From: a virus
Lineage: Duplodnaviria > Caudoviricetes
DNA length: 64,000 nt
Virus record (IMG/VR): IMGVR_UViG_2890449678_000009
Coordinates: 14,840-78,839 of that record
Direction: 5' to 3' (one strand)
Both the position numbers and the translations under genes were made by a program. Below the pieces are notes generated by a model. The model was not told the origin of the DNA. It did no database searches and worked only from the letters and a program-made list of their open reading frames with translations. Shown piece by piece: positions 14,813 to 62,036 of the stretch. The first letter of the stretch is position 1. The number at the start of each line of letters is the position of its first letter.

Positions 14813-15039
14813 TGAACGTCAAAGCGATTTGTGCGGTGATTTTGGCCGCTTTGTTTGTCGGCATGGCGGCGACCATTCTGCGCCTGACATGGAAAGCCTC
14901 TAAGGAAAAGACCGCCCAGCAGCAGCGCAATGATGCGCGGTCGGTTACTGCGTTACAGGCCGAGGCCAGCCAAGCGGCGACGGACGCTTGCAACACCGAT
15001 AGTCAGCTGGATGAGGAACTCACTAATGGCACATTTTAA
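14812..15039 (+). CDS. Putative i-spanin (Rz-like)
   Basis: N-terminal TM plus helical tail ending GTF; homologous to 63543-63776. Confidence 0.6.
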   Translation: MNVKAICAVILAALFVGMAATILRLTWKASKEKTAQQQRNDARSVTALQAEASQAATDACNTDSQLDEELTNGTF

Positions 15040-15379
15040 GAGCATGGAAAGCTGGCACGGCCCGTCTTTAAGAGAGCGCCTACGCCAAGCTGTGCGGACT
15101 ATGCGAGCTATCGCCAACCGATTGGCCGCTGCTGCGCGCCGGATGATGCGATGGACATTTGTCTCTGCGAGCATGGCGGGGCTGGCGGCGTGCGCCACTC
15201 CTGACGTCAAAGGGCTGTGCCCGTCTTATGTCCATTATCAGAAATATGATGACCAGTTTGTGCGCAATGAGCTACGCGTTGCGGGTGTGACGGGCCAGAG
15301 CTTGCCGATGACGCATCGCTTTCTCCGCGATTATGGCAAGCAGCGCGCCGCTTTGCGGGTGATCTGCAAGGGGAATTAA
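15026..15379 (+). CDS. Putative o-spanin lipoprotein (start could be 15143)
   Basis: Lipobox LAAC; LCP..VHY...RDYG..R...R..C shared with 63776-64000. Confidence 0.6.
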   Translation: MAHFKSMESWHGPSLRERLRQAVRTMRAIANRLAAAARRMMRWTFVSASMAGLAACATPDVKGLCPSYVHYQKYDDQFVRNELRVAGVTGQSLPMTHRFLRDYGKQRAALRVICKGN

Positions 15380-15381
15380 TC

Positions 15382-17085: not shown

Positions 17086-18280
17086 GGAAGGCCCTATCCT
17101 CTCGCATGTGAAGCTCTCACCCAGTGAGGCGATCAGCTATTTTCGCCAGAAGGTCAATGTGCCGACTGAGCGTTGGGGGGAGCTGAGCTCAGAAGCACAT
17201 GCGCGTGGGTTTGCCGTAGCGGGGGCCACAAGTGACGCGTTGCTGAATGATTTCCGCACCGCTATTGGGCGGGCGCTCAGTGATGGCACAACCCTTCAAG
17301 AGTTCCGAAAGTCTTTTGACTCCATTGTTAAAAAACATGGCTGGGAACATACGGGCACGCCAGGATGGCGGGCGAAGATCATCTATGAGACCAATATCGC
17401 CTCGGCCTATTCAGCGGGGCGTTATCGGCAGATGACCACGCCGACCGCGTTGGAGCTGTATCCATACTGGCGGTATGTCCATCACAGCTGTGCCCATCCA
17501 CGCCCCACCCATGTGGCGTGGAGCGGAACGGTGTTGCGCAATGATGACCCGTGGTGGGGCACGCATTACCCGCCCAATGGCTGGCATTGCCATTGTTCGG
17601 TTGAAGTTGTGTCCGATGCGCGGATGGAGCGAAACGGTTGGAGCGTGGACGAAGCCCCGCCGCTAGAGAGGAAACCGTGGCGCAACCCGGCTACCGGCAA
17701 GATTGAGATGGTGCCTAAAGGGATTGATCCGGGCTTCCAGAGCAATCAGGGCTTGGAATGGGCAAAAGCTGAGAAAGCGCGTGCGTCCTCGTCCATGACA
17801 CCGCTGACCCATGTAGGCGGCCTGCAGGTTGAGCAGCTCCCAGCCCCTGCGCGGATGAAGGTGCAAAAAGAGCAGATTGCCCAGTTCGCGTCCATGAAAC
17901 CGCAGCCTGTGGGTATGGTTGAAGCGGGCACCTTGCCACCCAAGGTGCAGGAGCTGTTGGGGAGCCAGACTGCGCAGGTCTTGTTGTCTGCCGAAACATT
18001 GATGAAAAACCAGACCCACCATCCTGAGCTGACGCCAGACGAGTATGCGCAGCTTGCGGCTCTGTTGGCTGATCCTGATTATGTTTTGGAAGAGAAGCAG
18101 GAGGGACGTGTCAGCCTAGTCGCTCAGCATGACAGTATTTATCGCTTCATTGTGAAGAGGACACGAGATGGAAAAGAAAACTTCATACTGTCCATGACCC
18201 GCATGAGACAGCGACCTGCTGATCAGCTCGTAAGAAACCGGACGGTGCTCTTTGCAAAGCAGAAGAATGAAGGAGAATGA
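17078..18280 (+). CDS. MuF minor head protein with C-terminal PBECR2-like nuclease domain
   Basis: EAISYFRQK, IYETN...AYSAGR, HYPPNGWHCHCSV; C-terminal V.LS.ETL.K...HHPELT..EY..L...L..P...VKRTRDG.E.FILS. Confidence 0.88.
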   Translation: MAEEGPILSHVKLSPSEAISYFRQKVNVPTERWGELSSEAHARGFAVAGATSDALLNDFRTAIGRALSDGTTLQEFRKSFDSIVKKHGWEHTGTPGWRAKIIYETNIASAYSAGRYRQMTTPTALELYPYWRYVHHSCAHPRPTHVAWSGTVLRNDDPWWGTHYPPNGWHCHCSVEVVSDARMERNGWSVDEAPPLERKPWRNPATGKIEMVPKGIDPGFQSNQGLEWAKAEKARASSSMTPLTHVGGLQVEQLPAPARMKVQKEQIAQFASMKPQPVGMVEAGTLPPKVQELLGSQTAQVLLSAETLMKNQTHHPELTPDEYAQLAALLADPDYVLEEKQEGRVSLVAQHDSIYRFIVKRTRDGKENFILSMTRMRQRPADQLVRNRTVLFAKQKNEGE

Positions 18281-18383
18281 AGCAACGCACGGGTGGGGCC
18301 TGCTATCTAACCCCACAATAGTGCTCTACCCATGCGGGCATGCCCTGGTCAGCAGAATATCGCCAGATCACCGTGCGTTGCTC
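18281..18383 (-). ncRNA. Candidate antisense structured RNA downstream of MuF-PBECR
   Basis: Perfect 12-bp closing stem (18281-92/18371-82), three internal hairpins, CTGCT/AGCAG loop-loop pairing and an antisense promoter. Confidence 0.6.
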
Positions 18384-18388
18384 CCTCT

Positions 18389-18417
18389 AAAATAGGATGA
18401 ACGTCGGCAGCGATCAA
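18389..18417 (-). promoter_or_regulatory. Antisense sigma70-type promoter for the structured RNA
   Basis: Minus strand TTGATC-17 nt-TATTTT; predicted +1 at about 18382-18383, the end of the closing stem. Confidence 0.6.
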
Positions 18418-18449
18418 GACAAATCATGAAGCAGCGATAGGATAACGTC

Positions 18450-18947
18450 ATGGCCCTCATTAAGATTAGTGGAAACACAGACCGCATTTCTGCTGCCCTT
18501 TCTCGACTAGAGAAGCTCGGAAGAGAGCCGAATGCGCTTTTGTCGGATATCGGGCTTAAGATGGTTGACCGAACGAAAGAACGCATAGAAAGGGAAGTCT
18601 CTCCCGATGGCAGTCCTTTTGCGCCGCTTAATCCGCTTTATGCTTCGACAAAAAAAGGGCCAGGCATTCTTCGTGAAAGCGGATCTCTCCGCAGGACCAT
18701 TTATAAGCAGATTGAGGGCAACCGCCTGATCTGGGGTTCAAACATGAATTACGCTGCTGTGCATCAATTTGGGGCGATTATTAAACCCAAGACACAGTCG
18801 GCGTTAGAGTTTAGTATTGGCGGACGGGTGTTTAAGCGCCAATCTGTGACCATTCCAGCGCGGCCTTATCTTGGCTTTAATGAGGCCGACCGGCAGGCGA
18901 CGGTGGAGACGCTTCAGACATTTTTCCGACGTTGTCTGGCGGGCTAA
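18450..18947 (+). CDS. Mu gpG-like virion morphogenesis protein
   Basis: SPDGSPFAPL, ILRESGSL..., GSNMNYAAVHQFG, IPARPYLG. Confidence 0.92.
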   Translation: MALIKISGNTDRISAALSRLEKLGREPNALLSDIGLKMVDRTKERIEREVSPDGSPFAPLNPLYASTKKGPGILRESGSLRRTIYKQIEGNRLIWGSNMNYAAVHQFGAIIKPKTQSALEFSIGGRVFKRQSVTIPARPYLGFNEADRQATVETLQTFFRRCLAG

Positions 18948-19109
18948 CGCTTTCGCGTTCCCCCTGTCTCATTTTCAAACGCTCTTCAAACGATTTCAAA
19001 CGGGGTTACGTGCGTTTTGGGACGATGTGTGGGTCATTATACCGCACGCCGCCTGTAAAGCGCTGTGCGGGCTTTTATGAGAACCGCCCCTTTTGCCTTC
19101 TTAAACAGG

Positions 19110-19168
19110 TTTCGGGGTATAGGGTGGAGTCCTGATAACGCGTGACACGCTCTGTCATGGTTGCCCTC
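19110..19168 (+). promoter_or_regulatory. Mu-like late promoter copy 2 (PI-like)
   Basis: TTTCGGGGTATAGGGTGGAGTCCTGATA with CATGGT at +46. Confidence 0.78.
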
Positions 19169-20155
19169 ATGAGCGTGATGACAGACATGCCGTTCTCTTA
19201 CGACGGCTCCACACCCCCTGATTGGGTTCATATCCTCCCCCACGGCGCCTTTCCCGTTTTGGGTGGGCGCACATCACTGCGTGCGTCTGACCTAAAGGCG
19301 GTGATTGAGGCGTCGTTGCAGCGCGGGAAGATTGTGCTGGATGAGAACCACAGCACAGACCTTGCGGCACCGCGTGGGAAGCCCTCACCAGCGATGGGGT
19401 GGATTGAGGCGATGGAGGCCCGGAGTGACGGCCTCTGGGGGCGTGTGGTGTGGACTAAGCGCGGGCGGGCCGCCATGGAAGACCACGCGTATCGCGCGCT
19501 CTCGCCCGTCTTGAGTAGCCTGAATGGTGAGGTAACGCAGATTTTACGCGTGTCGCTCACCAATACGCCTGACCTCACGCTCACAACGCTCCATTCCCAA
19601 ACAACCAACCATGAAGGATGTGCGATGACCTACTCACGCGCTGACCTCTGCGCACGCCTTGGCTTGAAAGCCGAGGCCGATGACGCAACGATTGCCCAGG
19701 CACTCGACCAAGCTCGTGGGAGTGTGTCATTGCACTCCCGCACCGCTGAGCTGGCGGGGCTGAAACCGGATGCTTCAGAAGACGCCATTCTGGCGAGCCT
19801 TCAAGCGCAACGCGAACAAATCACGCTGCATTCAACCGCCACGCAGAGTCTGCAAAGCCGCCTTGATGCGCTTGAGCAGGAAAATGGCCGTATCAAAGCC
19901 GAACGCTTTGTCAGCGAGGCGGGCCGGACCAAGCTCATCTCTGACGATCTGCGCGGCACGCTTATTACGCTTCATTCACAGAATGCGGAGCTGGCCCAAA
20001 GCATTGTGGCGGGCTTGCCTGACGCGCCAAGCGGGCAGCCGACGATGGGTGGCGCTGCGGGGGCTTCCCATGCCCGCGCGGACACCGGCATGGCCAAAGC
20101 AGAAGCCGCCCTTGGCTTAACCGAGGATGACCTCAAGCAAGGAGGGCTCCGCTAA
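19169..20155 (+). CDS. Head maturation protease I with internal in-frame scaffold Z (start about 19625)
   Basis: WVHILPHG.F, VLDENHST, PAMGWI, GLWGRV.WT.RG, YR.LSP, LTNTP.L; GAAGGA RBS before internal ATG 19625. Confidence 0.9.
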   Translation: MSVMTDMPFSYDGSTPPDWVHILPHGAFPVLGGRTSLRASDLKAVIEASLQRGKIVLDENHSTDLAAPRGKPSPAMGWIEAMEARSDGLWGRVVWTKRGRAAMEDHAYRALSPVLSSLNGEVTQILRVSLTNTPDLTLTTLHSQTTNHEGCAMTYSRADLCARLGLKAEADDATIAQALDQARGSVSLHSRTAELAGLKPDASEDAILASLQAQREQITLHSTATQSLQSRLDALEQENGRIKAERFVSEAGRTKLISDDLRGTLITLHSQNAELAQSIVAGLPDAPSGQPTMGGAAGASHARADTGMAKAEAALGLTEDDLKQGGLR

Positions 20156-20667
20156 TGGCGCTTACGCAAGATCGCGCGCTTTCTGAAAAGCTAGTGCCTC
20201 ATGGGCCTGAATTTGGCCATCCCGTTGCTGAGGGCTTCCGCGTCTATCGTGGGTCGCTTGTTGCGGTGTGTGCGGACGGCACGATTGTGCCCGCTGGGGC
20301 GACGAACACGCCCTCTGCCCCTGTGGCGATTGTTGGGCTGGCACGGCAGTTCAAAGACAATTCTGCGGCGGGGTCGATGCTCAATGGCGACATGGTGGGC
20401 AGCCACCCGATCTGGGTCAAAAAAGGCTGCTACGCTTTGCCGTTTGACACAGCACCCACGTGGGCGAACCTCAATCAGACGGTCTATGCCGTTGATGATG
20501 AGACGGTGTCTTTAAACCAAAGCGCCCCTCCACCAAAAGCAGCTTCTGCTTCTACTGGCGATAATGAAACGGCCAGCACGCCCAGTGTGCCTGCTGCTTC
20601 AAGGCTGCCGGTCGGCACGCTCGTTGGGTTTGAGCCTGATGGCACGCCCTTTGTTCTGATTTCCTAA
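20155..20667 (+). CDS. Head decoration/cement protein
   Basis: Between protease and capsid; VYRGSLVAV..DG..VPA, VYAVDDETVS. Confidence 0.65.
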   Translation: MALTQDRALSEKLVPHGPEFGHPVAEGFRVYRGSLVAVCADGTIVPAGATNTPSAPVAIVGLARQFKDNSAAGSMLNGDMVGSHPIWVKKGCYALPFDTAPTWANLNQTVYAVDDETVSLNQSAPPPKAASASTGDNETASTPSVPAASRLPVGTLVGFEPDGTPFVLIS

Positions 20668-20682
20668 AAAAGAGAGAATATT

Positions 20683-21636
20683 ATGGATATCTCCATAGGG
20701 TCTATGAATGCGTTGACCGCGCGGTTGAGCTTAGCCTTCAATAAATATATTCCCACCGTCCCTACCCAGTATGGGCGCTTTGCGATGACAGTTCCCTCCT
20801 CAGCGGGGGAGAATATTTACCCACGCATTGCGGAGCTGCCGGGGTTGCGGGAGTTTTTGGGGCAGCGTGTTGTTCATCGTATCTCCGCTCAGGAGCGTTT
20901 TACGATTGTCAACCGCACCTTTGAAGAGACACTCTCTGTCCGACGGGAAGATTTAGAAGACGACCAGTTTGGCTTTTTAACCCCTGCTATACAGCAGCTC
21001 GCCGCCGATGCAGGCACGCTCCCCGATAAGCTGGTTTTTGGTCTGCTTGAAGCAGGACACCGCACAAAAGGCATGGATGGTCAGTATTATTTCGATGCCG
21101 ACCATGAAGGGTATGGGCGCGATGGAAAACCTACGGGCTTTTCCAATCTTCTCCGTCCCGCTGCCACGGAGCGCACAACCCCGGCTTGGTATTTATTTAA
21201 CAATAACAACCCGATGAAGCCGATGGTCTTCCAGACACGCAGGCCGTTCACGGTTACGGCACGCACGCAGCTTTCTGATGGGGTGGTGTTTCACCGCAAT
21301 GAGTTTGAATGGGGCACAGATGGACGGTGTAATGCGGGCTATGGGCTGCATAATTTTGCGCTCCGCTCCACCGCGCCGCTGACGCCTGAAAATCTCGGCA
21401 AGGCGATTGCGATGATGGAGAACCAGTATCGCAAAGACGGCCAGCCTTATAATGCGCGGCCCAATATCCTCTTCGCCCCCACCTCTTTGGAAGGGGAAGC
21501 GCGCGCGCTGTTGGAGAAGGATTTCGTGCCGATGAAAACCCCAGACGGCACATGGGTGACTGGCTCCAACCCGTGGAGTGGCACGCTGGAACTCGTGGTG
21601 AGCCCTTACCTGAATGCTTTTGCGGTGACTGACTAA
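20683..21636 (+). CDS. Major head protein (Mu gpT)
   Basis: PGLREFLGQRV, NRTFEETLSV.REDLEDDQ.G, DGQYYFDADH, KPMVFQTR, GTDGRCNAGYG. Confidence 0.95.
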   Translation: MDISIGSMNALTARLSLAFNKYIPTVPTQYGRFAMTVPSSAGENIYPRIAELPGLREFLGQRVVHRISAQERFTIVNRTFEETLSVRREDLEDDQFGFLTPAIQQLAADAGTLPDKLVFGLLEAGHRTKGMDGQYYFDADHEGYGRDGKPTGFSNLLRPAATERTTPAWYLFNNNNPMKPMVFQTRRPFTVTARTQLSDGVVFHRNEFEWGTDGRCNAGYGLHNFALRSTAPLTPENLGKAIAMMENQYRKDGQPYNARPNILFAPTSLEGEARALLEKDFVPMKTPDGTWVTGSNPWSGTLELVVSPYLNAFAVTD

Positions 21637-21941
21637 TGGCGACCAAGAAAAACGCGACAACAGCGGTGGACGTGGCACGCGATGAGGCTGTGACATCCGC
21701 CCCGGAACATGACCTTTCCTCTACCGAGGAGGCAAAGACGGTCACGGCGCATCTCTTGCTGGCCGACAGGAGGGTGCCGCTCAAGGCGGGGCAGCTTCTG
21801 ATTATCTGTGCTTCTCCGGGCTTTCGGCGGGCGGGCATTGAGCATGAGCGCTCCAAGCTGTGGGAGAGACGCGCGTTCACCGCTGAGCAGATCGACCAGA
21901 TGCGGCGTGAGCCTCTGCTGACGCTGATCGAGGTGGGCTGA
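21636..21941 (+). CDS. Mu gp35 / HI1506-like protein
   Basis: GFRRAGIEH...FTAEQI..M.REPLL. Confidence 0.75.
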   Translation: MATKKNATTAVDVARDEAVTSAPEHDLSSTEEAKTVTAHLLLADRRVPLKAGQLLIICASPGFRRAGIEHERSKLWERRAFTAEQIDQMRREPLLTLIEVG

Positions 21942-21943
21942 CC

Positions 21944-22369
21944 ATGGCCTATGCGACGCTGGATGACCTGATTGAGCGCTTTGGGCGCGGGGAAATTGCC
22001 AGCACCAACCCCGATCGGAACGTGCCGCGTGGCACGTTGGACGGCGAGCGTGTGACGCGCATCCTCACAGACGTATCGTCCACGATGGATAGCTACCTTC
22101 AGCGTCGCTATGTCGTGCCGGTATCACCTATTCCGCCGGTGTTGGTGCGGGTCTGCTGCCAGCTTGCCCGCTTTGACTTGGCCCTTGGCACAGCCAACGT
22201 GCCGAGTGAACAAATCCGCTCAGGCCAGCAAGCGGCGATGGCGTGGTTACGTGATATCGGTGCCGGTAAGGCCACGTTGGATGCGGTGGCGGTCGTGGAT
22301 AATAGCGAAAGCTGGTCGCGCTTTAAGGGGCGCACGTCCTTCCATGGTCGAGGAGGGTCGGTCTTATGA
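21944..22369 (+). CDS. Head-tail adaptor (Mu gp36, DUF1320)
   Basis: MAYATLDDLIERFG, DSYLQRRY.VP, CCQLARF.L, A.AWLRDI..GK. Confidence 0.9.
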   Translation: MAYATLDDLIERFGRGEIASTNPDRNVPRGTLDGERVTRILTDVSSTMDSYLQRRYVVPVSPIPPVLVRVCCQLARFDLALGTANVPSEQIRSGQQAAMAWLRDIGAGKATLDAVAVVDNSESWSRFKGRTSFHGRGGSVL

Positions 22370-22953
22370 CAGAGGCTCTCACACCAGCAGGCTATCCGCG
22401 TGCGATCTTAAAAGGCGATGTGGTTGGGAAGGCTTTTGAGGGCGTGCAAGCACGGCTGAAAGCCTTGTTCTCCGACACGATCTTTTCCCACGCCATCCTA
22501 CCCCCTCATGCTACGCGCCAGACATGGGACAAGATCATCCAAAGCGCTCCTTGTGTGGCCTTGGGCTTGGGCGGTTGGCGAGCCAGCAACAAGCCCGGTT
22601 ACGGCTTTATGGGCGATCTGAGCTTTCCGCTGGCGATCCTGCTCACGCATAGCGATCCCAATGACCTTTATCTGGGCACGGGGGAGCTGCGCGATATTGG
22701 CGTTGCGGGAGTGATGGCCGCCATTGCGGGGGGCTTGCATGGCTGGGAGCTAGGCGATGTGGGGTCGTGCAAAGTCCACGCGATCACACTGCCCAACACA
22801 GAAGACTGGTTTGATGATCGCTCGGCCATCGTGGCCGTTGAACTCGTCTTTGAAAATGTGCGGCTCGACAATGCCGAAGCCCTTGCTGAGCTTGAGGATT
22901 TTCTCAGCCAACGCACACAAATCACACCACAAAAGGAGAACGGCCATGAGTGA
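22366..22953 (+). CDS. Tail terminator (Mu gp37-like)
   Basis: Synteny and size. Confidence 0.65.
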   Translation: MTEALTPAGYPRAILKGDVVGKAFEGVQARLKALFSDTIFSHAILPPHATRQTWDKIIQSAPCVALGLGGWRASNKPGYGFMGDLSFPLAILLTHSDPNDLYLGTGELRDIGVAGVMAAIAGGLHGWELGDVGSCKVHAITLPNTEDWFDDRSAIVAVELVFENVRLDNAEALAELEDFLSQRTQITPQKENGHE

Positions 22954-23170
22954 CGATAGTGTCAACGTGCGCCCTGCTGCGGGCCGTCGGGTGATGAGCC
23001 CACGCGGCGCTGACGTGCCCGCCAAGGGCTTTGCCATTAATCCGCGCGACCCTTGGTGGGCACGGGCGCTGAGAAGCGGCGACATTGTGCCGATTAGCAA
23101 CAGCGAACCGCCCTCTGATGCAACTCAAGCGGCACCCATCCTGCCCTCAAAGACTGAGGAGAAGAAATAA
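22946..23170 (+). CDS. Mu gp38-like protein (DUF2635)
   Basis: VRPAAGRRV..P..., WWARALRSGDIV. Confidence 0.8.
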   Translation: MSDDSVNVRPAAGRRVMSPRGADVPAKGFAINPRDPWWARALRSGDIVPISNSEPPSDATQAAPILPSKTEEKK

Positions 23171-24645
23171 TGGATTTTGAACAAATCCCCGGTCAGCTGC
23201 ATGTGCCCGGTTCTTATACCGAGATAAAAGACGTGCCTGCACCGGGTCGTCTGACGGGCATGCCCGTGCGGCCACTCATTGTGGGGCCAACCGCGAAGAA
23301 AGAGCTGGCAGGCCAGCTGTTCCGCAACGTCTCCCCAGGGCATGTTGAGGGCCTGTTTGGTGCAGGGTCCGTCATCGCGCAGGCCGTGCGGACCTTTAGT
23401 GCTGAGCAGCCCATGTTGAGCGTCGATGTGGTGACAGTCACCACCCCCGATGGTGCGAAACCTGCGACCGGCACGCTGGCTTTTTCAGGTGCTCCACAAC
23501 GGGCTGGAACGGCAGCCATCCTTGTGGGTGGGCAGCGGGTTAGCTGGCCTGTGGCCACTAACGACACGCCGCAAAATATCGCAGCGCAGTTGCTGACAGC
23601 GATCAATGCCAGCACGCTTACACAAAATACAGGCGTAACCGCCGCCCTTGGTAAGGACGGCACGTCTGTCGTCTTTACCGCTGGTGAAGGCGGCGCGGTC
23701 ACCAATGATATCGACCTCCGCCTCTCTTCCGCCCTGAGTGACCAAGTGCCGGGCATGGTCGTGACTGTTACGCCGATGAGCGAAGGCACAGGCACACCCG
23801 ACGTTACGCCTGCGGTGATGGCGTTGGGTGAGATTTGGTACACGGACGTTGTCCTCCTAGTGAATGACCAAGCGGCTGTCAGTGCGTTCGTCCAAGAAGC
23901 TAAACGTCGTGGCAATGCGATGGTGGCTAAGGATATGCGGGTCTGTGTGGGGCTGCGAGCCTCTATGGGCCAAGCGCTCGCCTTCCAGCAGAACTTTGGA
24001 ACATCGGAAGAGCTTGTGCTCTTTGCTTGGGAAAATCCGCGTGCGTCGTCTTGGCAGATGGCGGCCTCGTTGGGAGCAGTGATGGCCCAAAGCCTCAACA
24101 CAGACCCCGCCCGACAGCTGCGCGGTTTACCGCTGACGACCCTAACGGGGTTGGGGCCTGAGCATGGCGATGATTTCACCTTTAACCAGCGCAACCTGAT
24201 GCTCGGCACAGGCTGCACAACCGTAACAGTAAGCGAAGATGGCACGATTGCACTGGAGCGTGTGGTCACCACCCGCGTGACGATGCCGGAGACAGGCACG
24301 GCATCGGGTGTGTGGGATGTGATGATCCCCGCTATTGGGGCACGCGTCCGCTTTGAGTGGAACAGTTTTGCCGAAGCCAACTATGCCCGCGCCAAACTGG
24401 CCGATGATGGCAGCCCGCTGGCCAATGTTGACGGTGTGGTCACGCCCAAAACGCTCAAAGCCTCATGGATCGGCCAATGTAAGCTCTATGAGCAGCAAGG
24501 CTGGATTGATGATGTGGCCACCACAGGGCCACAGGCGGTGTTTGAGCGGGACGCAACAGACCGGAACCGTGTGAACAGCTCGCTGCCCATCTTGCCGATG
24601 GGCTCGCTTATGGTCTTGGCCAATATTCTGACATTGGAGGTCTAA
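23170..24645 (+). CDS. Tail sheath protein (Mu gpL)
   Basis: FEQIP..L.VPGSY.EI, LFGAGS, DPARQL, RN.ML..G..T, ERVVTT, AKLADDG. Confidence 0.93.
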   Translation: MDFEQIPGQLHVPGSYTEIKDVPAPGRLTGMPVRPLIVGPTAKKELAGQLFRNVSPGHVEGLFGAGSVIAQAVRTFSAEQPMLSVDVVTVTTPDGAKPATGTLAFSGAPQRAGTAAILVGGQRVSWPVATNDTPQNIAAQLLTAINASTLTQNTGVTAALGKDGTSVVFTAGEGGAVTNDIDLRLSSALSDQVPGMVVTVTPMSEGTGTPDVTPAVMALGEIWYTDVVLLVNDQAAVSAFVQEAKRRGNAMVAKDMRVCVGLRASMGQALAFQQNFGTSEELVLFAWENPRASSWQMAASLGAVMAQSLNTDPARQLRGLPLTTLTGLGPEHGDDFTFNQRNLMLGTGCTTVTVSEDGTIALERVVTTRVTMPETGTASGVWDVMIPAIGARVRFEWNSFAEANYARAKLADDGSPLANVDGVVTPKTLKASWIGQCKLYEQQGWIDDVATTGPQAVFERDATDRNRVNSSLPILPMGSLMVLANILTLEV

Positions 24646-53629: not shown

Positions 53630-56464
53630 ATGCCCCAAGTGCCCTACACCGATGACACCTACAAACTCCCTGAACGCGTCAGCGCTGGTGGGACGGAACT
53701 TCTCAATGTGCCCAATTATGGGGAGATGGTCGGTCGTGGTTTAGACCGTTTCGGTTCTGGCATAGCAGCCGCCAATGACGTTGCTGAACGACTGCAACGA
53801 CAAGACGACATCACCGCTGTGCAAGGGGCGATGAACGACTTCCGGACCCATGTGCGCAATGTGCAATATGGTGATCCCAATAATCCCAACGATACGGGCT
53901 TTTTCGGTCTTCAAAATAAGGCAACGCTGGATGCATGGAAGCCAACGGCACAGGGGCTGGACCAGACGCGCCGCTCTCTCATGGACGGGCTCACCTCCGA
54001 CCAGCAACGGCTCTTTCAACAAGAAAGCGAGCCTTTCCTCAACAGTGCCCTTGATAGCATGTCGAGCCATACGGCACAGCAGCGCAAAAGCTATCAGCAG
54101 CAAACACAGAAAGCCACACTTGAAAACCTGGTCAACCAGGGTGCAGCCAATCACGATAACCCGTCTGTTTTTTCGGGAACCCTTCTCCAAGGCAGAAACG
54201 CGATTGCGCAAAATCTCGCTTTGCGGGGCGTCCCCTCTGATAGCCCGATTGCCCAACAAGAGCTGCAAAAATTTAACGACGATTACTTCACCACCTCGGC
54301 ACAAGCAGCGACGGATAGTGGCGATGCCATTAAGGCACAGAACCTGCTTATGTCCAACCGTCGGAACCTTTCAGAGCCTGTTTTTGAGCAGTCGATGGCG
54401 ATGCTCAAGCCGCATATAGACCATCAAGTCGGTGGCATGCTGGCGGATGCGGCCATCAATCACCGCGATGACGGTATGGCCATTCCTGCCCAGAGCACGC
54501 AAGACGCGGTTTTTACGACCATGACGCATCTGGAAAGTGGCGGCCAACAAACGGACAAGAACGGAAACCCCCTCACCTCACCCAAGGGCGCTACCGGCAT
54601 TGCTCAGCTTATGCCCGATACAGCACGTTCCGTCGCACAATCATCAGGGCTCGGATGGGATGAAGACCGGTTTAAACATGATAGTGCGTATAATCGCGCT
54701 TTAGGGGCTGCCTATTATAGCCAGCTTTGCCAAAAATACGGCGGCAACCTGACCCTCGCCTGTGCGGCTTACAATGCAGGCCCCGGCCATGTGAACCAAT
54801 GGCTGAAGGATATTGGAGACCCACGCAGCGGTGCGATCACCGATCAACAGTTTGCACAGAATATTCCGTTTAAGGAAACGCGCGATTATGTCAGTCGCGC
54901 AGGAGCAGCCCTCACAAAGTCCCAACCAGCACCCAGCTATGAGGCTCCTGATCGGGAGAAGCAGCTTGCCTCCATTGCAGCACGAGGGCGGGCCATCGGT
55001 GCCTCACCAGAAGCCATTGCGGACGCGAATAGCCGCGTGGAGCATAATTATAGCATCTGGAATGCGAGCACACAGGGCAGCCGAAACCAGCTTGGCCAGC
55101 ATCTGGACGATCTCAGCGCGTCCTATATGGCCGGGAACACCCAGACTGACATTCCAGAACGTGACATCCGCACACTTTACCCACCCGAAGAGGCCCAGAA
55201 CAAAATTGATGACCTCAATGATCGCCGTCGGGCAGGTTTAAGCTTTAACGCGATCAAATGGGCGTCTCCTCAACAGGCCGCAAACGTGCTAAAAGGCGCA
55301 ACCACACCGCTTCAAGGCGAAGATATTGACCATTTCAGGACACGACAAAAAGCAGCGGACCTACTGTTAGCAAGCCTGAACAAGCGCCAAGACGCTCTCA
55401 AAAAAGACCCGGCTTCTTATGTGCAGGATAACCCACAAGTGCAACAAGCATGGCAGGACTATCAGCAGAACGAAACGCCTGAGACGTTCAAAACCTACGC
55501 CAAGGCTTCCCAAGCGTTGCAACAGACGATGGGGGTTTCTTCCCCTCATGTTTTAACCAGTGATGAAGCCGATCATCTGGTCACGCAATTCACGCAGGCA
55601 GATCCACAAAAGCAAGAGGTCGGCCCTGCCCTAGATAATCTTCGTCACCATTATGGCGATGATTACTGGCCTCAAGTCCTTTCGGAAATGGTCGCCCATA
55701 AACTCCCTGCCGACTATGCCACCATGGCCAATATGGATACGCCGGCTCAACAAACGCGCCGCCAAATGCTCCAGCGTGATATCAAAATTGGGGAAGACAA
55801 ACTGAAAGTGATGGCTGGCCCCGATGCAGCTAAACTTGATAATACAACGGCGGATAACCCGCTCTATAACAGCCTGGGAGATGCCAGAAAAACCTTCCTC
55901 CTCCAAGCGGGTGGAGATATTCCCTATCAAAACCTGGCGCAGACCATGAAGCTCCAGACACTCGGCTATATGGCAAAAGGGCTTCCTCTCTCCCAAGCCA
56001 TGACGAACGCCCGTGCTGATCTGTTCGATATGAAATATGATACATCCGGCTTCCTGCGCACCCCTAAAGGGGAGATGTCTGTTACTAAACAAACAGGGGC
56101 CGCTATGCTTTCTTCGCTCCGTAATGGCGATATACGTGAGGTGTTACCCGATGCTATTGCCAAGATGCCACCCCAAGAAAGAGAACGCTACAATGCGGAT
56201 TCTAATGGTACAACTCTGACCAATGCCCGCGACAATGGCCAATGGGTCATGAACGACAAAGAAGACGGCTATAATCTTCTCATCCCAAGCAGCACGACAC
56301 CGGGGGAATATCAAATGCTCCAAGACAAAAAAGGGCAACCTATCACGCTCTCCATCAAGGACATCCATTCTGGCAAATGGTTCAGCCCGTACGACACGAC
56401 CGCCCAACGTGACGCCCGCCTTGCCCATGAGGGTAAAACCCGCCATATCGGCGGGGATTGGTGA
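53630..56464 (+). CDS. Ejection protein with lytic transglycosylase (SLT) domain
   Basis: LESGG....SPKGA.G.AQLMP.TA ... AAYNAGPG.V..W ... IPFKETRDYV. Confidence 0.9.
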   Translation: MPQVPYTDDTYKLPERVSAGGTELLNVPNYGEMVGRGLDRFGSGIAAANDVAERLQRQDDITAVQGAMNDFRTHVRNVQYGDPNNPNDTGFFGLQNKATLDAWKPTAQGLDQTRRSLMDGLTSDQQRLFQQESEPFLNSALDSMSSHTAQQRKSYQQQTQKATLENLVNQGAANHDNPSVFSGTLLQGRNAIAQNLALRGVPSDSPIAQQELQKFNDDYFTTSAQAATDSGDAIKAQNLLMSNRRNLSEPVFEQSMAMLKPHIDHQVGGMLADAAINHRDDGMAIPAQSTQDAVFTTMTHLESGGQQTDKNGNPLTSPKGATGIAQLMPDTARSVAQSSGLGWDEDRFKHDSAYNRALGAAYYSQLCQKYGGNLTLACAAYNAGPGHVNQWLKDIGDPRSGAITDQQFAQNIPFKETRDYVSRAGAALTKSQPAPSYEAPDREKQLASIAARGRAIGASPEAIADANSRVEHNYSIWNASTQGSRNQLGQHLDDLSASYMAGNTQTDIPERDIRTLYPPEEAQNKIDDLNDRRRAGLSFNAIKWASPQQAANVLKGATTPLQGEDIDHFRTRQKAADLLLASLNKRQDALKKDPASYVQDNPQVQQAWQDYQQNETPETFKTYAKASQALQQTMGVSSPHVLTSDEADHLVTQFTQADPQKQEVGPALDNLRHHYGDDYWPQVLSEMVAHKLPADYATMANMDTPAQQTRRQMLQRDIKIGEDKLKVMAGPDAAKLDNTTADNPLYNSLGDARKTFLLQAGGDIPYQNLAQTMKLQTLGYMAKGLPLSQAMTNARADLFDMKYDTSGFLRTPKGEMSVTKQTGAAMLSSLRNGDIREVLPDAIAKMPPQERERYNADSNGTTLTNARDNGQWVMNDKEDGYNLLIPSSTTPGEYQMLQDKKGQPITLSIKDIHSGKWFSPYDTTAQRDARLAHEGKTRHIGGDW

Positions 56465-56499
56465 GCATGTTCTCATACGTGTTTAGAGAGCACACCCAG

Positions 56500-56525
56500 T
56501 AGAACTTATAAACAAGAGCCATGCT
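56500..56525 (+). promoter_or_regulatory. Podoviral late promoter copy 4
   Basis: TAGAACTTATAAAC-N6-CATGCT. Confidence 0.75.
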
Positions 56526-56549
56526 CCCCCCACTTACAGGGGGGGGAAC

Positions 56550-59366
56550 ATGCCATTTTATACCAAAGGGCCGGACGTTCTAAGCTCGGTTCAGAATGAA
56601 GGAGCCGCTGGTCAACAAAGCTCTTTAGGAGATTCACTGAAGGCCTCCTTCATGTCGGGCGTTCAGGCGATACCGATCGTCAGGATCAACCGAGCCCTTT
56701 ATCACGGGATCGAAAATACAGAAGGCGACCAGCTCAACCCAGAAGACGCGAACGCCCAATATGGCATTAAGGGCGCGTTGAGCTTTGATAAGCCTGTTTC
56801 CTCCAAATATGCCGACACGCTGCACCGCGAAAAACAAAGCGAGCTGATGCGTGAGACAACCATACGTAATGGTCCCAGCGGTGTTGTCAGTGCGGTCGCG
56901 AACATGGCAGCGGGCGCATTGCCGAGTTTTCTAGACCCCGTCAATGCGGCGTCTATGCTCGTTCCCGGCCTTGGGGAAACCCGCGTCAGCACAGGGCTAG
57001 GCATGGCTGCTGCCCGTGCTGAAGGCTGGGGCATGGAAGGGGCCGCTGATGGGCTCCTTAGTGCTGAGGGTGCTCATCGTTCTGTCGTTAACGCCCTTGA
57101 GGCGTCCCCCATCGGGCGCGTGGTTCAAGGGGCGAGCCAAGGCATGGCGGGGCAAACAGCCCTAGAGCCGCTGAACCTCTATCTTGATCGTGACGAACAT
57201 AATGATTGGACGATGGGCCAAGCGCTGACCAACATCGCCTTTGGTGGACTTATGGGCGGGGCCATGCATGGGATCAGTCATGCCGTCACTGATCGCTTTC
57301 AGCCAGAAGAAGCCCCACCCAATACCACACAAGAACGCTTAAACGGGATTAACCCTGATGTACGCGGGCAAGTTCTCGCTGAAAGCCTCGTTTCCCTCAG
57401 TAATGACCGCCCCAGCAATGCGGACAGTCTTCTTCATCTTCATGAACTCGACCAGACGCGGCGTGACCTGCAAAGCTGGATGGACACCCATGGTGGGAAC
57501 GATGGCGGGAACAACGACACACCAGCGCCCCCAGGACGCGGCACGCTGGAACAAGACCTAGCCGATCTGCACAAAAAGCACAGCGCCCTCTTACAAGAAG
57601 AAAATACGCCAGAACCGCAAGCTTCACCCGATACATCCACAGACAATAGGCGCCCTGCACGAAGTAACCAAGCGGCTTCACCATCCCTCTTTACCTTCCT
57701 GACCAAACATGGCGGGGTGCGTGATGAAGGCGGCGAGCTGAAAGCGAATGACCTGCATAAACAGCGTGTAGGGCTGGTGCGCCGCAATGGAGGGCTTCCC
57801 CTCGACCGAGCGCGAGAACTCGCTGAAGAAGCCGGCTATCTCAAACCGGGCGCGGATATTAACGACCTGCTCAATGCCATGACAGAAGAAGGGCATGGGC
57901 GCAAAGCCTATGCTGATGGCCTTGGTCCAGAACAGTCCACCCATCTTGACGACCCTGACCGTGAAGAGCACGCACGCTCTGCCGCTCATGATGACGTTGA
58001 GCTGGCTGCCTACGACCATGACATTCCCCTCACACCCGATCTGCACGCTCAAGCAGCAGAAGCGACCCTTGGTGGGGCCGACCCGCATGACGCGTTAGAA
58101 GATGCTCTCAAACATTCTTCTTATACGGATTGGCAGCAGTATCAGGAGAGCTTTGACAAAAGCCGTGCTGTTCAACAAGAGCGCCGCAACGCGAAGAAAC
58201 ACGCGTTACAAGCCCTGACAGAGCATCATTTAGGCCGATATGGCCAACGCCTTGATGCGGGTGTCACGTCTGATGATCTCACCTCTATGACGGATGCGCT
58301 ACTCAATAGCACGAACCCCGAAGAGGTCATAGAGCACGCATTAAGCCATCTGGAATCCAACCAAGGAAAAGGATTTGACCCACGATGGGAAGACACCCTC
58401 CATGACAGCTACCAACAGGCTTTGCAAAAACTCTCAGACCTGCAAGAAGGCGTCGGCTCTGACATTCTCCGTGCCCTGACCAACCCAGAAAGTCGTGAGG
58501 TTGCCGACAACCGCGCGGGCCTGGTCGCCAAAAAGGAAGGCGCCCCCACACCTGAAAGAAGCACTCGTTTTTCTCCCTTACCTACCACAGGCATTGACCA
58601 TCTCAATCTCTCAGAAGTTGGTGGCCACCCTGCTCTGATGGGCCATATGCCCGAGGGAATTGAAGGCGTGCCTCCTTGGCCTGTTGTGCTGGGGGATGGA
58701 GAGCATACAGTAAAACTAGATGCGAAAGGTCGCGATATTGGTGGTGGGCACGGTCGCGCCCATATCATGGCGCGGCATGGCGATGAGATTAAGAAACGTG
58801 GTTTTGAAGGGGCTGATGATTATATTCGCCATGTCATCCAAAATATAAACCAGCTTCGCAAAGATAATAACAACGGCTCCCTCTTCTCCGTCATTATGGG
58901 AGAGCGACAAACCGCTAATGCGAAGCATGACACCGCTATTCTTCATGTCAAAAGGGAAGACGGCTATTATCGTGTAGCCACAGCATCTACCTTCAAAACA
59001 AATTCTCTCACTAAAAAAGAGCTGCTGTGGGAAGGGCGTCGCACTACCCCTTCAGGTCTCAACGGGCATGACCATCCTCTCTTTGATCCTCGCGAACATA
59101 TGCCCGATGTTCCGAGGCGCGGAGCGACTGTCGAAGCCACAAGCAGTTCCAAGAATAGTGATTCACAATCCCCCAAAAGTCAAGACAATTCACTCCACGA
59201 GGCCCAAGCCTACGGGGCACAACTCGACCAGCAAATCGCCCTCTATGGCGATAAAACTATTTCCCCTGAAGAACTTGAAGAGGTGAAGCGAGCCCAGGCC
59301 CTCTCTGACGGGAATGCCGATGCTCTTTCTTCCGCCGCCGCTTGCCTGACAAGGACCGTACGATGA
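56550..59366 (+). CDS. Ejection/polyvalent protein with PBECR-like nuclease domain near the C-terminus
   Basis: LDPVN.A..LVPG N-terminal domain; about 58680-59035 PV.L..G.H....GG.G..HI.ARH..EI...YI..V..N...YYRV.TA....L.KKELLWEG. Confidence 0.78.
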   Translation: MPFYTKGPDVLSSVQNEGAAGQQSSLGDSLKASFMSGVQAIPIVRINRALYHGIENTEGDQLNPEDANAQYGIKGALSFDKPVSSKYADTLHREKQSELMRETTIRNGPSGVVSAVANMAAGALPSFLDPVNAASMLVPGLGETRVSTGLGMAAARAEGWGMEGAADGLLSAEGAHRSVVNALEASPIGRVVQGASQGMAGQTALEPLNLYLDRDEHNDWTMGQALTNIAFGGLMGGAMHGISHAVTDRFQPEEAPPNTTQERLNGINPDVRGQVLAESLVSLSNDRPSNADSLLHLHELDQTRRDLQSWMDTHGGNDGGNNDTPAPPGRGTLEQDLADLHKKHSALLQEENTPEPQASPDTSTDNRRPARSNQAASPSLFTFLTKHGGVRDEGGELKANDLHKQRVGLVRRNGGLPLDRARELAEEAGYLKPGADINDLLNAMTEEGHGRKAYADGLGPEQSTHLDDPDREEHARSAAHDDVELAAYDHDIPLTPDLHAQAAEATLGGADPHDALEDALKHSSYTDWQQYQESFDKSRAVQQERRNAKKHALQALTEHHLGRYGQRLDAGVTSDDLTSMTDALLNSTNPEEVIEHALSHLESNQGKGFDPRWEDTLHDSYQQALQKLSDLQEGVGSDILRALTNPESREVADNRAGLVAKKEGAPTPERSTRFSPLPTTGIDHLNLSEVGGHPALMGHMPEGIEGVPPWPVVLGDGEHTVKLDAKGRDIGGGHGRAHIMARHGDEIKKRGFEGADDYIRHVIQNINQLRKDNNNGSLFSVIMGERQTANAKHDTAILHVKREDGYYRVATASTFKTNSLTKKELLWEGRRTTPSGLNGHDHPLFDPREHMPDVPRRGATVEATSSSKNSDSQSPKSQDNSLHEAQAYGAQLDQQIALYGDKTISPEELEEVKRAQALSDGNADALSSAAACLTRTVR
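59011..59149 (-). ncRNA. Candidate antisense structured RNA embedded in the coding sequence just after the PBECR-like domain
   Basis: Closing stem 59019-30/59137-49, internal hairpins, GTCGC/GCGAC loop pairing, and a U6 tract at its antisense 3' end. Confidence 0.58.
59155..59183 (-). promoter_or_regulatory. Antisense sigma70-type promoter
   Basis: Minus strand TTGACT-17 nt-CACTAT; predicted +1 at about 59148-59149. Confidence 0.55.
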
Positions 59367-61879
59367 CCCAACATGACAACCCTTGCTATAATGAAGCTCA
59401 GAAAGCCGCTGGACGGGAAATGTCCAAGGCCGAACTTGATGAGATGTTTGGACGGCTGGACAAAGAAGCGGGCCGTTACATGCGCCAAGGACTTTCCCCG
59501 CAAGAAGCCCTCCAAAAAGCGGGGCTGAAGATGGCCGATGATGAACGGCTGGCTGGGATCATTAAAGCCAATTCAGACAAACGCAATCTCATTGCCCACG
59601 CGGCCATGCAAAAACGGATCATTGAAGGGGATGAAGCCGCCTCCCTAGAGGGTATCCTTGCGGGGCGGGAAAATGGAGAACGTGGCGCGGCGCTCTCCAT
59701 CGCCGCTAATGCTCATGGGCAAGAGCAGCAGGTGCTTGGCCCCCTTATGCATGATCTGGAACAAGCCGGTTTACTCAAGCCGCTTCTGGCCCGTGATGAG
59801 CAGTTCGACGCCGATGTAGGCCGGGAAATGTGGCGCTTAGATGCGCCGGAGGATTTCCCCGCTACCGGCAATAAGCAAGCCGAAAAAGCGGCCCGCATTC
59901 TCTCCGATGCTCAAGAGACCGTGCGTCTCATGCAGAACAAACAAGGCGCGTGGATTGGCAAGACAGACCATTATGTCACTCGGCAAAGCCATGACATGTG
60001 GAAAATTCGTGGCAATGAAACAGAAGCAGATTACCAGAAATGGCGCGACACCTTGGCCCCTCTTCTGGATGACCGCACCTTTGACACCATGGACGCCCGG
60101 CAATCACGTGACGAATTCCTCCACCAGACATGGCTCAGTCTCGCATCAGGCGATCATGACAATGCCAATGGCAAAGACTGGCTCTCTGGCTTTAAGGGGC
60201 CGGGGAACCTTGCCAAGCGTGTGAGTCAAAACCGTGTACTACTCTTCAAAGATGCCGATAGTTGGCTGACCTATAACAAAGCCTACGGTCAGGACCGTGT
60301 CATTGATAGCGTCATCAAAGGCCTACAAAAAGGCGCACGCAATGCCGCTGTGATGAGCGATCTTGGCACAAACCCGGAAGCCCTGTTTAACCGCCTGACT
60401 GATGAGGCCAAGCAAGCCGCACGAGCCCGTGGGGACTTTAAGATGCATGGGAAGCTGGAACGCCTTCAAAAGGGAGCGCTCCTAGATACCATCACAGGTC
60501 GGGCGCGTTTACCGGCCAATAAAACCATTGAGCAGATTGGGGCGTACGCCAGAACATGGAACCAGTTCACCAAACTTGGCGGCGTGATGATCTCTTCCCT
60601 GCCTGACTTGGCCGTGAATGCCTCTGTCCTTCGTCATAATGGTATTCCGCTTTTTGAGAGCTATTGGAACAGTTGTAAGGCCATTTGCCCAAGCTTAGGC
60701 AGCCGAAATGAGGCTGAACGTAAGGAGATTGCGCAGCTCCTCGGTGTGGGTATCCAAGGCCATCTTGGGGCCGTCATGAACCGTTTTGCGGCCAATGATG
60801 CCCCCTTGGGTCGGGCTAGCGATCTCATCAATAAATTCTACCGCCTCAACCTGTTGGAATATTGGACCGATAGCCATTCTGAAGGCATGGGGCTTATGCT
60901 GTCCCATAATCTTGGGCGCAATGCAGAGACGCCCTTTACCGCATTGGACAGCAAGCTACAACGCAGCCTCAAGCGCTTTGGGGTGGAAGAGCCAGAATGG
61001 CAGGTTATCCGCCATGCCACTAAAGAAGCGGGCGGGAATGCATATCTCCTCCCTACCGAAATCGCCAAGCTATCCGATGAGGCCGTAGCGCCGCTTATCG
61101 AGGCCGGACAAAGCGCTGACGACGTAAGGGAAAGCCTCACCAATAAGCTCTACACCTACATAACCGACCAAACGCGCGAAGGCATGACCGAACCCGATGT
61201 CCGCACGCAAGCCACATTCCGAGGGATTAGTAGCCGTCTCGATGAGGTTAGCCCAATCCTTGGCCAAGCGGCCCGTCTCATGCTGCAATTTAAGAGCTTC
61301 CCCATTACCCATATCCGCCGTGCTTATGCCCGTGAGGTGCAGCGCTTTGGGGTAGACTTGCCCGGTATTGTTCATATGATCGCTGGGACCACTCTGCTGG
61401 GCTATGTCGCCATGAACACCAAAGCACTTCTAGCTGGAAAAGAGCCCCACGACCCTTCCGATGTGCGCACATGGATGGCCGCCCTCCAACAAGGGGGCGG
61501 TGCTGGGATCTATGGTGACTTCCTCTTTGGACAACAAAGCCGCATGGGCAATAGCTTCCTCGAAACAGCGGCGGGGCCTACATTGTCCGATATGGCCAAA
61601 CTTGCCGGGGTCTTTACCGCCACGCGCGATGAAGCCACCGATAGCCCTGATGCACAAAAAACCAGCGCTTATCTCGCTAATCTTGTTCGTGTAGTGAGTG
61701 GGCAAATCCCAGGCGGTAATCTTCCCTTTATCAACATTGCCTTGAAATATTGCGTGATCTACCGCCTCCAAGACATGATTAACCCCGGCTACACGCAGCG
61801 CTATGAAAAACTCATGAAACGCAATCAAGGGCAAGAATTCTGGCTCTCCCCTCAATGGAGTCCTTATGGGGGGAATTAG
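59363..61879 (+). CDS. Large ejection (internal virion) protein
   Basis: G..IG....Y..Q.HD, RVL.FKDA..W..YN..YG, QFKSFP, QGGG.GIYGDFL. Confidence 0.85.
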   Translation: MTQHDNPCYNEAQKAAGREMSKAELDEMFGRLDKEAGRYMRQGLSPQEALQKAGLKMADDERLAGIIKANSDKRNLIAHAAMQKRIIEGDEAASLEGILAGRENGERGAALSIAANAHGQEQQVLGPLMHDLEQAGLLKPLLARDEQFDADVGREMWRLDAPEDFPATGNKQAEKAARILSDAQETVRLMQNKQGAWIGKTDHYVTRQSHDMWKIRGNETEADYQKWRDTLAPLLDDRTFDTMDARQSRDEFLHQTWLSLASGDHDNANGKDWLSGFKGPGNLAKRVSQNRVLLFKDADSWLTYNKAYGQDRVIDSVIKGLQKGARNAAVMSDLGTNPEALFNRLTDEAKQAARARGDFKMHGKLERLQKGALLDTITGRARLPANKTIEQIGAYARTWNQFTKLGGVMISSLPDLAVNASVLRHNGIPLFESYWNSCKAICPSLGSRNEAERKEIAQLLGVGIQGHLGAVMNRFAANDAPLGRASDLINKFYRLNLLEYWTDSHSEGMGLMLSHNLGRNAETPFTALDSKLQRSLKRFGVEEPEWQVIRHATKEAGGNAYLLPTEIAKLSDEAVAPLIEAGQSADDVRESLTNKLYTYITDQTREGMTEPDVRTQATFRGISSRLDEVSPILGQAARLMLQFKSFPITHIRRAYAREVQRFGVDLPGIVHMIAGTTLLGYVAMNTKALLAGKEPHDPSDVRTWMAALQQGGGAGIYGDFLFGQQSRMGNSFLETAAGPTLSDMAKLAGVFTATRDEATDSPDAQKTSAYLANLVRVVSGQIPGGNLPFINIALKYCVIYRLQDMINPGYTQRYEKLMKRNQGQEFWLSPQWSPYGGN

Positions 61880-61896
61880 TCGCCTCCACTCCTAAG

Positions 61897-61922
61897 TAGA
61901 ACTTAGAAACGTCTGTCATACC
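61897..61922 (+). promoter_or_regulatory. Podoviral late promoter copy 5 (lysis)
   Basis: TAGAACTTAGAAAC-N6-CATACC. Confidence 0.72.
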
Positions 61923-62036
61923 CGTTCTGGCAACAACGGAACGGATCTATGCGTGCTTTTTCTCTGTCTTTGGTCGGGTCTACTTTAGGCTGCGGCACCC
62001 CTCTTCCCTTTCATGATGGAAGGGAGGTTCGCGCTC

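Follow-up and report, generated by a model that had tools for sequence, protein, structure and literature searches.

Small antisense RNAs accompany several toxin genes of prophages, as in txpA/RatA and bsrG/SR4, which are convergent, 3'-overlapping pairs of Bacillus prophages. In the type III system ToxIN, the toxin processes its RNA partner ToxI, a tandem repeat array encoded upstream of the toxin gene in the same orientation. OOP of phage lambda is a short cis-antisense RNA that has a promoter and a terminator to itself and overlaps a coding region at its 3' end. In the rac prophage, the DNase RalR is paired with the small RNA RalA, which is trans-encoded and has 16 nucleotides (nt) of complementarity, according to the available part of the report (PMC4041452). 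PBECR domains are described, in the accessible parts of two papers (Iyer et al. 2017, PMC5512222; preprint 10.64898/2026.08.28.747851), as predicted metal-independent RNases of the BECR fold, borne by polyvalent and MuF-fused proteins that are packaged in the virion and injected, and whose scaffolds are mosaic and remodelled; in the accessible text of the preprint, immunity is always a protein and the phrase 'antitoxin RNA' occurs 0 times. Here we analyse a structured element in a 64,000-nt stretch of a tailed virus (the window; bases 14840-78839 of the 78.8-kb record IMGVR_UViG_2890449678_000009). The element occupies the linker codons that follow a PBECR3-like domain in a 938-amino-acid (aa) open reading frame (ORF), and the linker DNA probably encodes an antisense RNA gene.

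Set beside the type I pairs (RalR/RalA, txpA/RatA and bsrG/SR4), the locus would likewise couple a prophage-borne toxin, which is a nuclease in RalR, to a small antisense RNA, and the RNA gene would be convergent, overlap the 3' side of the toxin and form a structured, terminator-like stem followed by a U-run. In contrast to those pairs, the candidate toxin is an internal RNase-like domain of ~135 aa in a 938-aa virion protein rather than a small gene, it is not the small hydrophobic peptide of the type I definition, and the RNA lies inside the same ORF, antisense through the linker codons. Unlike RalA, the predicted RNA is fully complementary to the message. With ToxIN the locus has in common that a (here putative) RNA is linked to the gene of an endoribonuclease, as well as the notion of RNase neutralization by RNA, but here there is one unit, downstream and on the opposite strand (the repeat searches covered inverted repeats only). 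As with OOP, an effect through duplex formation and RNase III would be expected, although here a late virion gene would be targeted instead of a regulator of lysis and lysogeny, the two ends of the RNA would pair with each other, and the unit accompanies a protein domain from one context to another. As in the PBECR domains of the available parts of the two papers, the protein is of the injected kind, its architectures are shuffled, and His residues are found within the helix ahead of the main sheet and immediately N-terminal to that helix; the putative RNA partner is the difference, and the same parts of PMC5512222 and 10.64898/2026.08.28.747851 mention none. A search of published titles and abstracts yielded no RNA linked to PBECR or BECR toxins. 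Cis-antisense RNAs beside toxins are of a known kind. What is new is the placement within the linker codons that follow an injected RNase domain, together with the portability of the unit.

The ORF, the domain and the parts of the element are located in the window as follows.

56550-59366, plus strand: 938-aa ORF, internal virion or ejection-type protein, carrying the nuclease-like domain and the linker.
58632-59040, plus strand: divergent PBECR3-like predicted RNase domain (about aa 695-830), of which ELLWE is the last strand.
59013-59018, minus strand: U6 run beyond the stem, terminator-like (Lys-Lys codons in sense).
59019-59030, minus strand: 3' arm of the predicted antisense RNA, complement of the codons E-L-L-W at the domain end.
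59031-59136, minus strand: interior of the element, two to three hairpins, including a 24-nt block at 59031-59054.
59137-59149, minus strand: 5' arm of the predicted antisense RNA (3' arm in sense); start placed at about 59149-59147 from the position of the -10 hexamer only.
59155-59160, minus strand: -10 hexamer CACTAT, a 3/6 match (A at position 2, T at position 6), 17 nt from the -35 hexamer.
59178-59183, minus strand: -35 hexamer TTGACT, unchanged in both close variants.

The closing stem joins GAGCTGCTGTGG (59019-59030) to CCAC-A-AGCAGTTC (59137-59149), with one bulged A and one G.T pair, across a spacing of 106 nt. Inside it lie the hairpin GAAGGG/CCCTTC (59031-59053) and the loop GTCGC with its complement GCGAC (59124-59128), so that all the features on which the original prediction rested (stem, hairpin, loop complementarity, A6 run and TTGACT-17-CACTAT) are present. 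Two contigs ~93-95% identical to the window carry 0 substitutions across 59011-59105; their only substitutions within the element, at 59106, 59131 and 59135, are all unpaired in the window's sense-strand fold, and many substitutions together with frame-restoring indels fall at 59151-59175. The 24-nt block is identical in a type-A relative (linker types are defined below), including all eight third codon positions, and an alternative, nested RNAalifold model pairs the conserved blocks with each other. The proposed loop-loop pairing is likewise conserved, but it shows no covariation, and the closest type-A relative has not retained the further hairpins GGTC/GACC and CCTCG/CGAGG. A suggested likeness to the 5' end of tmRNA found no support: ARAGORN reports 0 genes in 58000-60000, and Rfam gives only snoRNA-type noise in 56000-62000 at E<=10, with nothing at the element and no match at the element in 8 relatives.

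The structure is best judged across relatives, which were drawn from genome and viral collections (individual loci are given as L numbers). After L-L-W, the peptide linker falls into three unalignable types, A, B and C, and the interiors of the elements are likewise not alignable between types. In each linker type, the Leu-Leu-Trp codons nevertheless pair with a stretch 102-121 nt downstream (96 nt in L003), as in the following loci.

S. floricola (L013): AAACTGCTATGG / CCACAACAGTTT, spacing 104 nt.
L014: AAGCTGCTATGG / CCACAACAGCAC, spacing 104 nt.
L039, type-A module: GAAGACACTTCTTCAG / its exact complement, a perfect 16 bp, spacing 103 nt.
L017: ATTGCTCTGGC / GCCAGAGCAAT, spacing 102 nt.
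L018: TTGCTTTGG / CCAAAGCAA, spacing 104 nt.
L003: 14 nt, 79% complementary, spacing 96 nt.
L052: CTGTTGTGG / CCACAACAG, spacing 121 nt.
L025 (997-aa ORF, on codons K-L-P-K-I): 13 nt with 1 mismatch, spacing 108 nt.
L021: 16 nt, 81% complementary, spacing 107 nt.

Synonymous Leu codons covary with the partner arm, CTC facing CAG in L017 and CTT facing CAA in L018. When 11 rows were aligned in the sense orientation, 80.3% of cells were paired and 9 of the 12 pairs had changed on both sides, a result reached by 0 of 500 shuffles; controls with slid partners gave 29-51%. A covariance model (R1), built from these 11 stem rows on the antisense strand, matched elements outside its training set in L047, L046, L052, L004, L054, L055 and L053, all at E<=1e-12. 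The 18 distinct rows from the model search, an alignment fitted to the model in which one row is the opposite strand of L017, were 89.5% paired, with 10 of 12 pairs double-changed (0/500 shuffles; slid controls 31-54%). The inner hairpin of type B covaries too, from U-A to C-G (CGTCATCAC/GTGATGACG vs CGCCATCAC/GTGATGGCG), and the remaining inner helices are not conserved between linker types. Further type-A sequences were sought: metagenome scans returned none, and the viral scan gave only a near-copy of L015. The partial locus L056 had no hit to the covariance model. Taken together, the element is almost certainly a real, selected nucleic-acid structure.

Which strand carries it is a separate matter. 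In folds set against dinucleotide shuffles, the mean z-score over 10 elements was -2.06 for sense and -1.74 for antisense, and the closing stem appeared in the minimum-energy folds of 9/10 sense and 10/10 antisense strands; fold z-scores do not decide the strand. In mirror-image versions of the 11-row alignment, 87.9% of cells paired in antisense vs 80.3% in sense, with 13 and 3 G.U cells, respectively. Pair counts only lean towards the antisense strand, because many cells were inherited together.

The promoter position appears to be the stronger argument for the antisense strand than either pair counts or fold z-scores. A simple scan listed a sigma-70-type site on that strand, ending 0-7 nt before the stem, in 5/5 relatives scanned, where the 1-kb stretches held 1-3 sites each in total and shuffles lead one to expect 0.5-1.8 per kb.

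L021, antisense: TTGAAA-17-TATATT, 10/12.
L025, antisense: TTGAAA-18-TAAAGT, 9/12.
L017, antisense: TTGCGA-17-TATATT, 9/12.
L049, antisense: TTGACT-17-CATTAT, 9/12.
L043, antisense: TTGACG-18-TAGGAT, 9/12.

This arrangement (TTG-box, 17-18 nt, nAnnnT, 3-7 nt, stem) can be found by eye in the window, L013, L014, L018, L053, L055 and L052, as well as in both L039 units and in a second element of the window at 18281. When 14 promoter regions were aligned (A7), TTGACT of the window fell on the TTGAC, TTGAT, TTGCG or TTGAA hexamers of 13 other elements, and relatives have better -10 boxes than the window's at the same place. Four G+C-rich relatives place a sense Ile codon, ATA, exactly at the antisense -10 (TATATT/TATACT; L053 5480-5485, L055 5452-5457, L017 1438-1443 and L018 1992-1997), while in the L024 remnant, a pseudogene copy, the -10 is without A at position 2. 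Beyond the stem, a U-rich tail on the antisense strand is present in 11/11 rows of alignment A6 (columns 147-155), and in L025 the terminator scan lists a canonical small hairpin with a U-run at the homologous place. Comparison supports the idea of an antisense RNA unit, in that promoter, end-to-end stem and U-run recur in register despite almost unshared linkers, while the window's own promoter is weak.

The unit travels with the domain. It follows the domain in ejection proteins of ~600 and ~940 aa and in the 997-aa ORF of L025, and the host genome holds a third unit (L043; G001 contig 5, 1330-1500) beside a 254-aa ORF with the same domain; there, TTGACG-18-TAGGAT is followed after 7 nt by an 8-bp perfect stem with arms 107 nt apart and a U-rich tail. 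The second element of the window, with a closing stem, a promoter-like site and a U-rich part, occupies non-coding DNA immediately past the stop codon that ends a MuF/PBECR2-like ORF (17042-18280), whose C-terminus gives weak matches to PBECR2, MuF_C and PBECR3.

18281-18382, minus strand: second element of the same build, with a perfect 12-bp stem (18281-92/18371-82), 78 nt apart.
18389-18417, minus strand: promoter-like site of the second element, TTGATC-17-TATTTT, 6 nt to the stem; 8/12, unlisted by the scan.

This element folds at z -3.61 in antisense and -3.21 in sense. The original prediction had noted its matching topology, and the two are indeed of the same build. It had also noted a lack of sequence similarity to the linker element, but the two are not wholly dissimilar: their promoter regions share a 13-14-nt block. 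Since the unit also occurs in this non-coding setting, conservation of a linker peptide cannot explain it. Conversely, an orthologue that has no domain (L050; viral contig, 5900-6000) is also without the linker and RNA unit, a conserved S-R-A-G-L stretch running straight into I-T-E-A-Q, and so marks the boundaries of a cassette. With four settings and this domain-less orthologue, the proposed portability with the nuclease domain is supported. The antisense-built model R1 found one element per genome, always at a domain end, in the 3/151 family genomes with a match. In one Bombella-like genome and one viral contig (L039, 8917-9230, and L015), a type-A domain with its unit precedes K-L-L-W and a second, remnant unit of another linker type; in G374 and L039 this remnant persists although its own domain is gone, the RNA unit having outlived it. 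L024, a second gene copy in the Bombella-like genome, is broken by frameshifts. With 57.6% identity across the C-terminal 259 aa, S. floricola has the closer counterpart of the window's domain, whereas the RNA interior of the window belongs to the G374 type; RNA and domain therefore reassort.

The domain itself is best described as divergent PBECR3-like, related to PBECR3 but not a scored member of the family, because the window copy falls below the Pfam cut-off (PF18812, E 0.028; its 14.8 bits do not reach the gathering score of 30) and the likeness is at profile level only. PBECR3 was matched by 6/22 aligned family members at E<=0.01 (best E 3.4e-7), and a HMMER scan of 1.84 billion representatives returned 162 domain relatives at E<=1e-3, many of them 2000-6000 aa long. 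In the domain alignment (A3), H44, I45 and H49 are invariant (motif HIxxRH), T117 and A118 are nearly so, and the alignment ends with a conserved K-K-x-L-L-W; as a profile it matches one PDB chain, the CdiA toxin 7m5f_C (E 3.9e-4). The AlphaFold (AF2) model of the domain has a predicted local distance difference test score (pLDDT) of 89.6 and places H44 and H49 within helix 41-55, T117 within strand 112-121 and ELLWE in a strand. The hallmark of the BECR fold, as given in the accessible part of Iyer et al. 2017 (PMC5512222), is a conserved His in the pre-sheet helix and a conserved Thr or Ser on the C-terminal strand, and such residues (His in the helix, Thr on the C-terminal strand) are present in the family of the window's domain. 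Foldseek searches with the model gave 0 matches in the PDB at E<=0.001 (best E 0.35), and the best match in BFVD was a 1114-aa podovirus polyvalent protein (E 1.2e-5, TM 0.55). A stand-alone toxin, P0040, was sought in viral contigs and none was found.

The reading of the linker DNA as a putative antisense RNA gene draws on sequence: structure, covariation, promoter-like and terminator-like signals, and linkage to the domain. The existence of a transcript, its start and end points and its function are inferred from these features. Transcription would start at ~59148 from the promoter at 59183-59155 and give a predicted RNA of ~136 nt, whose first 12-13 nt would pair with its last 12 nt, the complement of the Leu-Leu-Trp codons. 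The stem would enclose ~105 nt folded as two to three hairpins, and termination would come from this stem together with the U6 run behind it (59018-59013). As for function, we tentatively favour action by base pairing on its own mRNA. The RNA would pair with the ejection-protein mRNA exactly at the end of the nuclease domain, as a cis-antisense 'safety' regulator like a type I antitoxin. By pairing with leaky late mRNA in a lysogen, or in tuning during lytic growth, it may cause the message to be blocked or cut at the codons of the domain's last strand, so that the active nuclease-bearing protein would not be completed; a block or cut there would strike while the last strand of the domain has yet to leave the ribosome. 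Perfect complementarity to the mRNA at the domain end makes cis action the most likely, and an interior that drifts and reassorts relative to the domain subtype fits a complementary partner, not one recognized by a protein.

Several observations weigh against this account. On the antisense strand, 59013-59155 folds no better than shuffled sequence (z -0.19, 78/200 shuffles as good; z -0.36 in the 10-element comparison), so that the stability expected of the element holds for the sense strand only (z -3.01, 1/200 shuffles as good); for scale, 107 sliding 143-nt windows of the 938-aa ORF average -0.38 on the plus strand (s.d. 1.05), and another of them reaches -3.1. The window's antisense promoter scores 8/12, below the scan threshold, and its -10 is altered in the two close variants. 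Fold and promoter statistics from the window alone are therefore mixed. A 12-bp stem around a 105-nt interior departs from the classical form of an intrinsic terminator, and the terminator scan listed none at 59013-59030, where there is no compact hairpin with a 3-8-nt loop and the stem closes the ~105-nt interior. In the window's lineage, the -35 overlaps the conserved peptide P-K-S-Q and the U-run overlaps conserved Lys codons, so part of the conservation of these signals could be protein-driven. The first 11 rows (alignments A5/A6) were picked because their stem had already been located. No element was found behind the more distant domain copies L019, L020, L026, L030 and L032, and the element is weak or ambiguous in L041, L042 and L049. 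Finally, the regulatory mechanism is pure inference.

An antisense RNA might instead act on the RNase domain protein, as an inactivating binder or a cofactor, in the manner of a type III antitoxin or a ribonucleoprotein. Such a role would suit a unit that accompanies PBECR-like domains in four protein contexts as well as in non-coding DNA, an RNA that its paired ends would make stable, and a domain beside which no protein immunity gene is evident within the ORF. It is nevertheless unlikely: the interior is wholly different among linker types A, B and C of close relatives, RNA and domain reassort, the G374 remnant has outlived its domain, and there are no ToxI-like tandem repeats, within repeat searches that covered inverted repeats only. 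The specific pairing of nuclease and RNA that the original prediction envisaged fares accordingly, as an interior that is neither conserved nor tied to one domain subtype argues against a protein-RNA fit.

We consider it distinctly unlikely that the structure belongs to the sense mRNA only, where it might, for instance, pause ribosomes, affect message stability or be cut by RNase III at the end of the domain, with a coincidental antisense 'promoter'. The z-scores of the window would agree with this (-3.01 in sense vs -0.19 in antisense), as would the mean sense z of -2.06 over 10 elements and pairs that are G.U in sense only, among them pairs 30-125, 53-102 and 57-100 of the nested RNAalifold model. 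Against it, however, stand a promoter position that is kept across unrelated linkers and listed by the scan in 5/5 relatives, the larger share of cells that pair in antisense (87.9% vs 80.3%; G.U 13 vs 3), and the 18281 element, which lies after a stop codon, where pausing makes no sense.

A quasi-palindrome at the level of DNA, with no RNA role, could arise by template switching in a tolerant linker or represent a small invertible segment. The perfect 16-bp inverted repeat of L039, whose 3' arm codes for an unrelated peptide, the about equal folding of both strands on average, and the inverted orientation that is open in the window (minus-strand ORF 58967-59176) are all compatible with such an origin. 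This explanation is very unlikely, as it leaves the promoter, the U-run and the covarying type-B inner hairpin unexplained, and one copy per genome makes no repeat family. The invertible form in particular is unlikely: the contigs of four runs, which were the only material covered, contain no strand-switch joints, and the type-A unit of L039 meets a stop codon when inverted (by eye). Chance complementarity of two conserved peptide-coding stretches (K-x-L-L-W; S-R-H-N-S / G-Q-S-N) is scarcely credible, for although both arms lie on semi-conserved peptide motifs and a single imperfect 12-nt repeat is not rare within 200 nt, the synonymous Leu codons covary and 10/12 pairs are double-changed, against 0/500 shuffles and slid controls of 31-54%.

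Three other candidates were rejected. The A6 run, which in the window lies ahead of the stem, does not have the X XXY YYZ phase of a programmed frameshift and is absent in L014, L015 and L018; translational bypass lacks matched take-off and landing codons in S. floricola; and an in-frame repeat element, of the miniature inverted-repeat transposable element (MITE) or Rickettsia-palindromic-element type, does not agree with one copy per genome and a 5' arm made of conserved domain codons.

A contig of Saccharibacter sp. EH611 holds DNA identical to the window. The N-terminus of the 938-aa ORF matches phrog_3003 (E 2.5e-27), and a blastn search of the ORF against a phage collection gave no match. 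It is flanked by an SLT transglycosylase virion protein (53630-56464) and a virion structural protein (59342-61879), and this position is the usual place for podovirus ejection proteins. Elsewhere in the record are head genes of Mu type (Portal_Mu at 15382-17085 and Mu F-like at 17042-18280, in the region 13256-24645), and the same record carries tail and ejection genes of podovirus type (a phrog_376 tail protein, the SLT protein and phrog_684, 39253-62000). A further 143-nt stretch of the 938-aa ORF, at 56925-57067, folds in sense at z -3.1 (-70 kcal/mol).

Phage virions and conjugative elements widely carry PBECR and related BECR RNases as cargo, and an antisense unit at the end of the domain would offer a concrete, testable answer to how the producer cell or lysogen is protected. 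The element may also add a putative RNA family that is absent from Rfam. More generally, the content of the opposite strand can place a 'disordered linker' under selection, which is relevant to the reading of variable linkers in mosaic phage proteins and to the annotation of small RNAs hidden inside ORFs. A broader and more doubtful proposal is that injected RNase domains of BECR type bring their own RNA immunity, written backwards in the linker codons, as one mobile cassette. If this were true, the linker peptide would be a by-product of the promoter, stem and terminator of the RNA, and domain and RNA would move together among ejection proteins, MuF head proteins and stand-alone ORFs. The locus would then be the first case in which an RNA serves as antidote to a polymorphic or injected toxin with the BECR fold, and an example of a protein linker shaped by an antisense gene.

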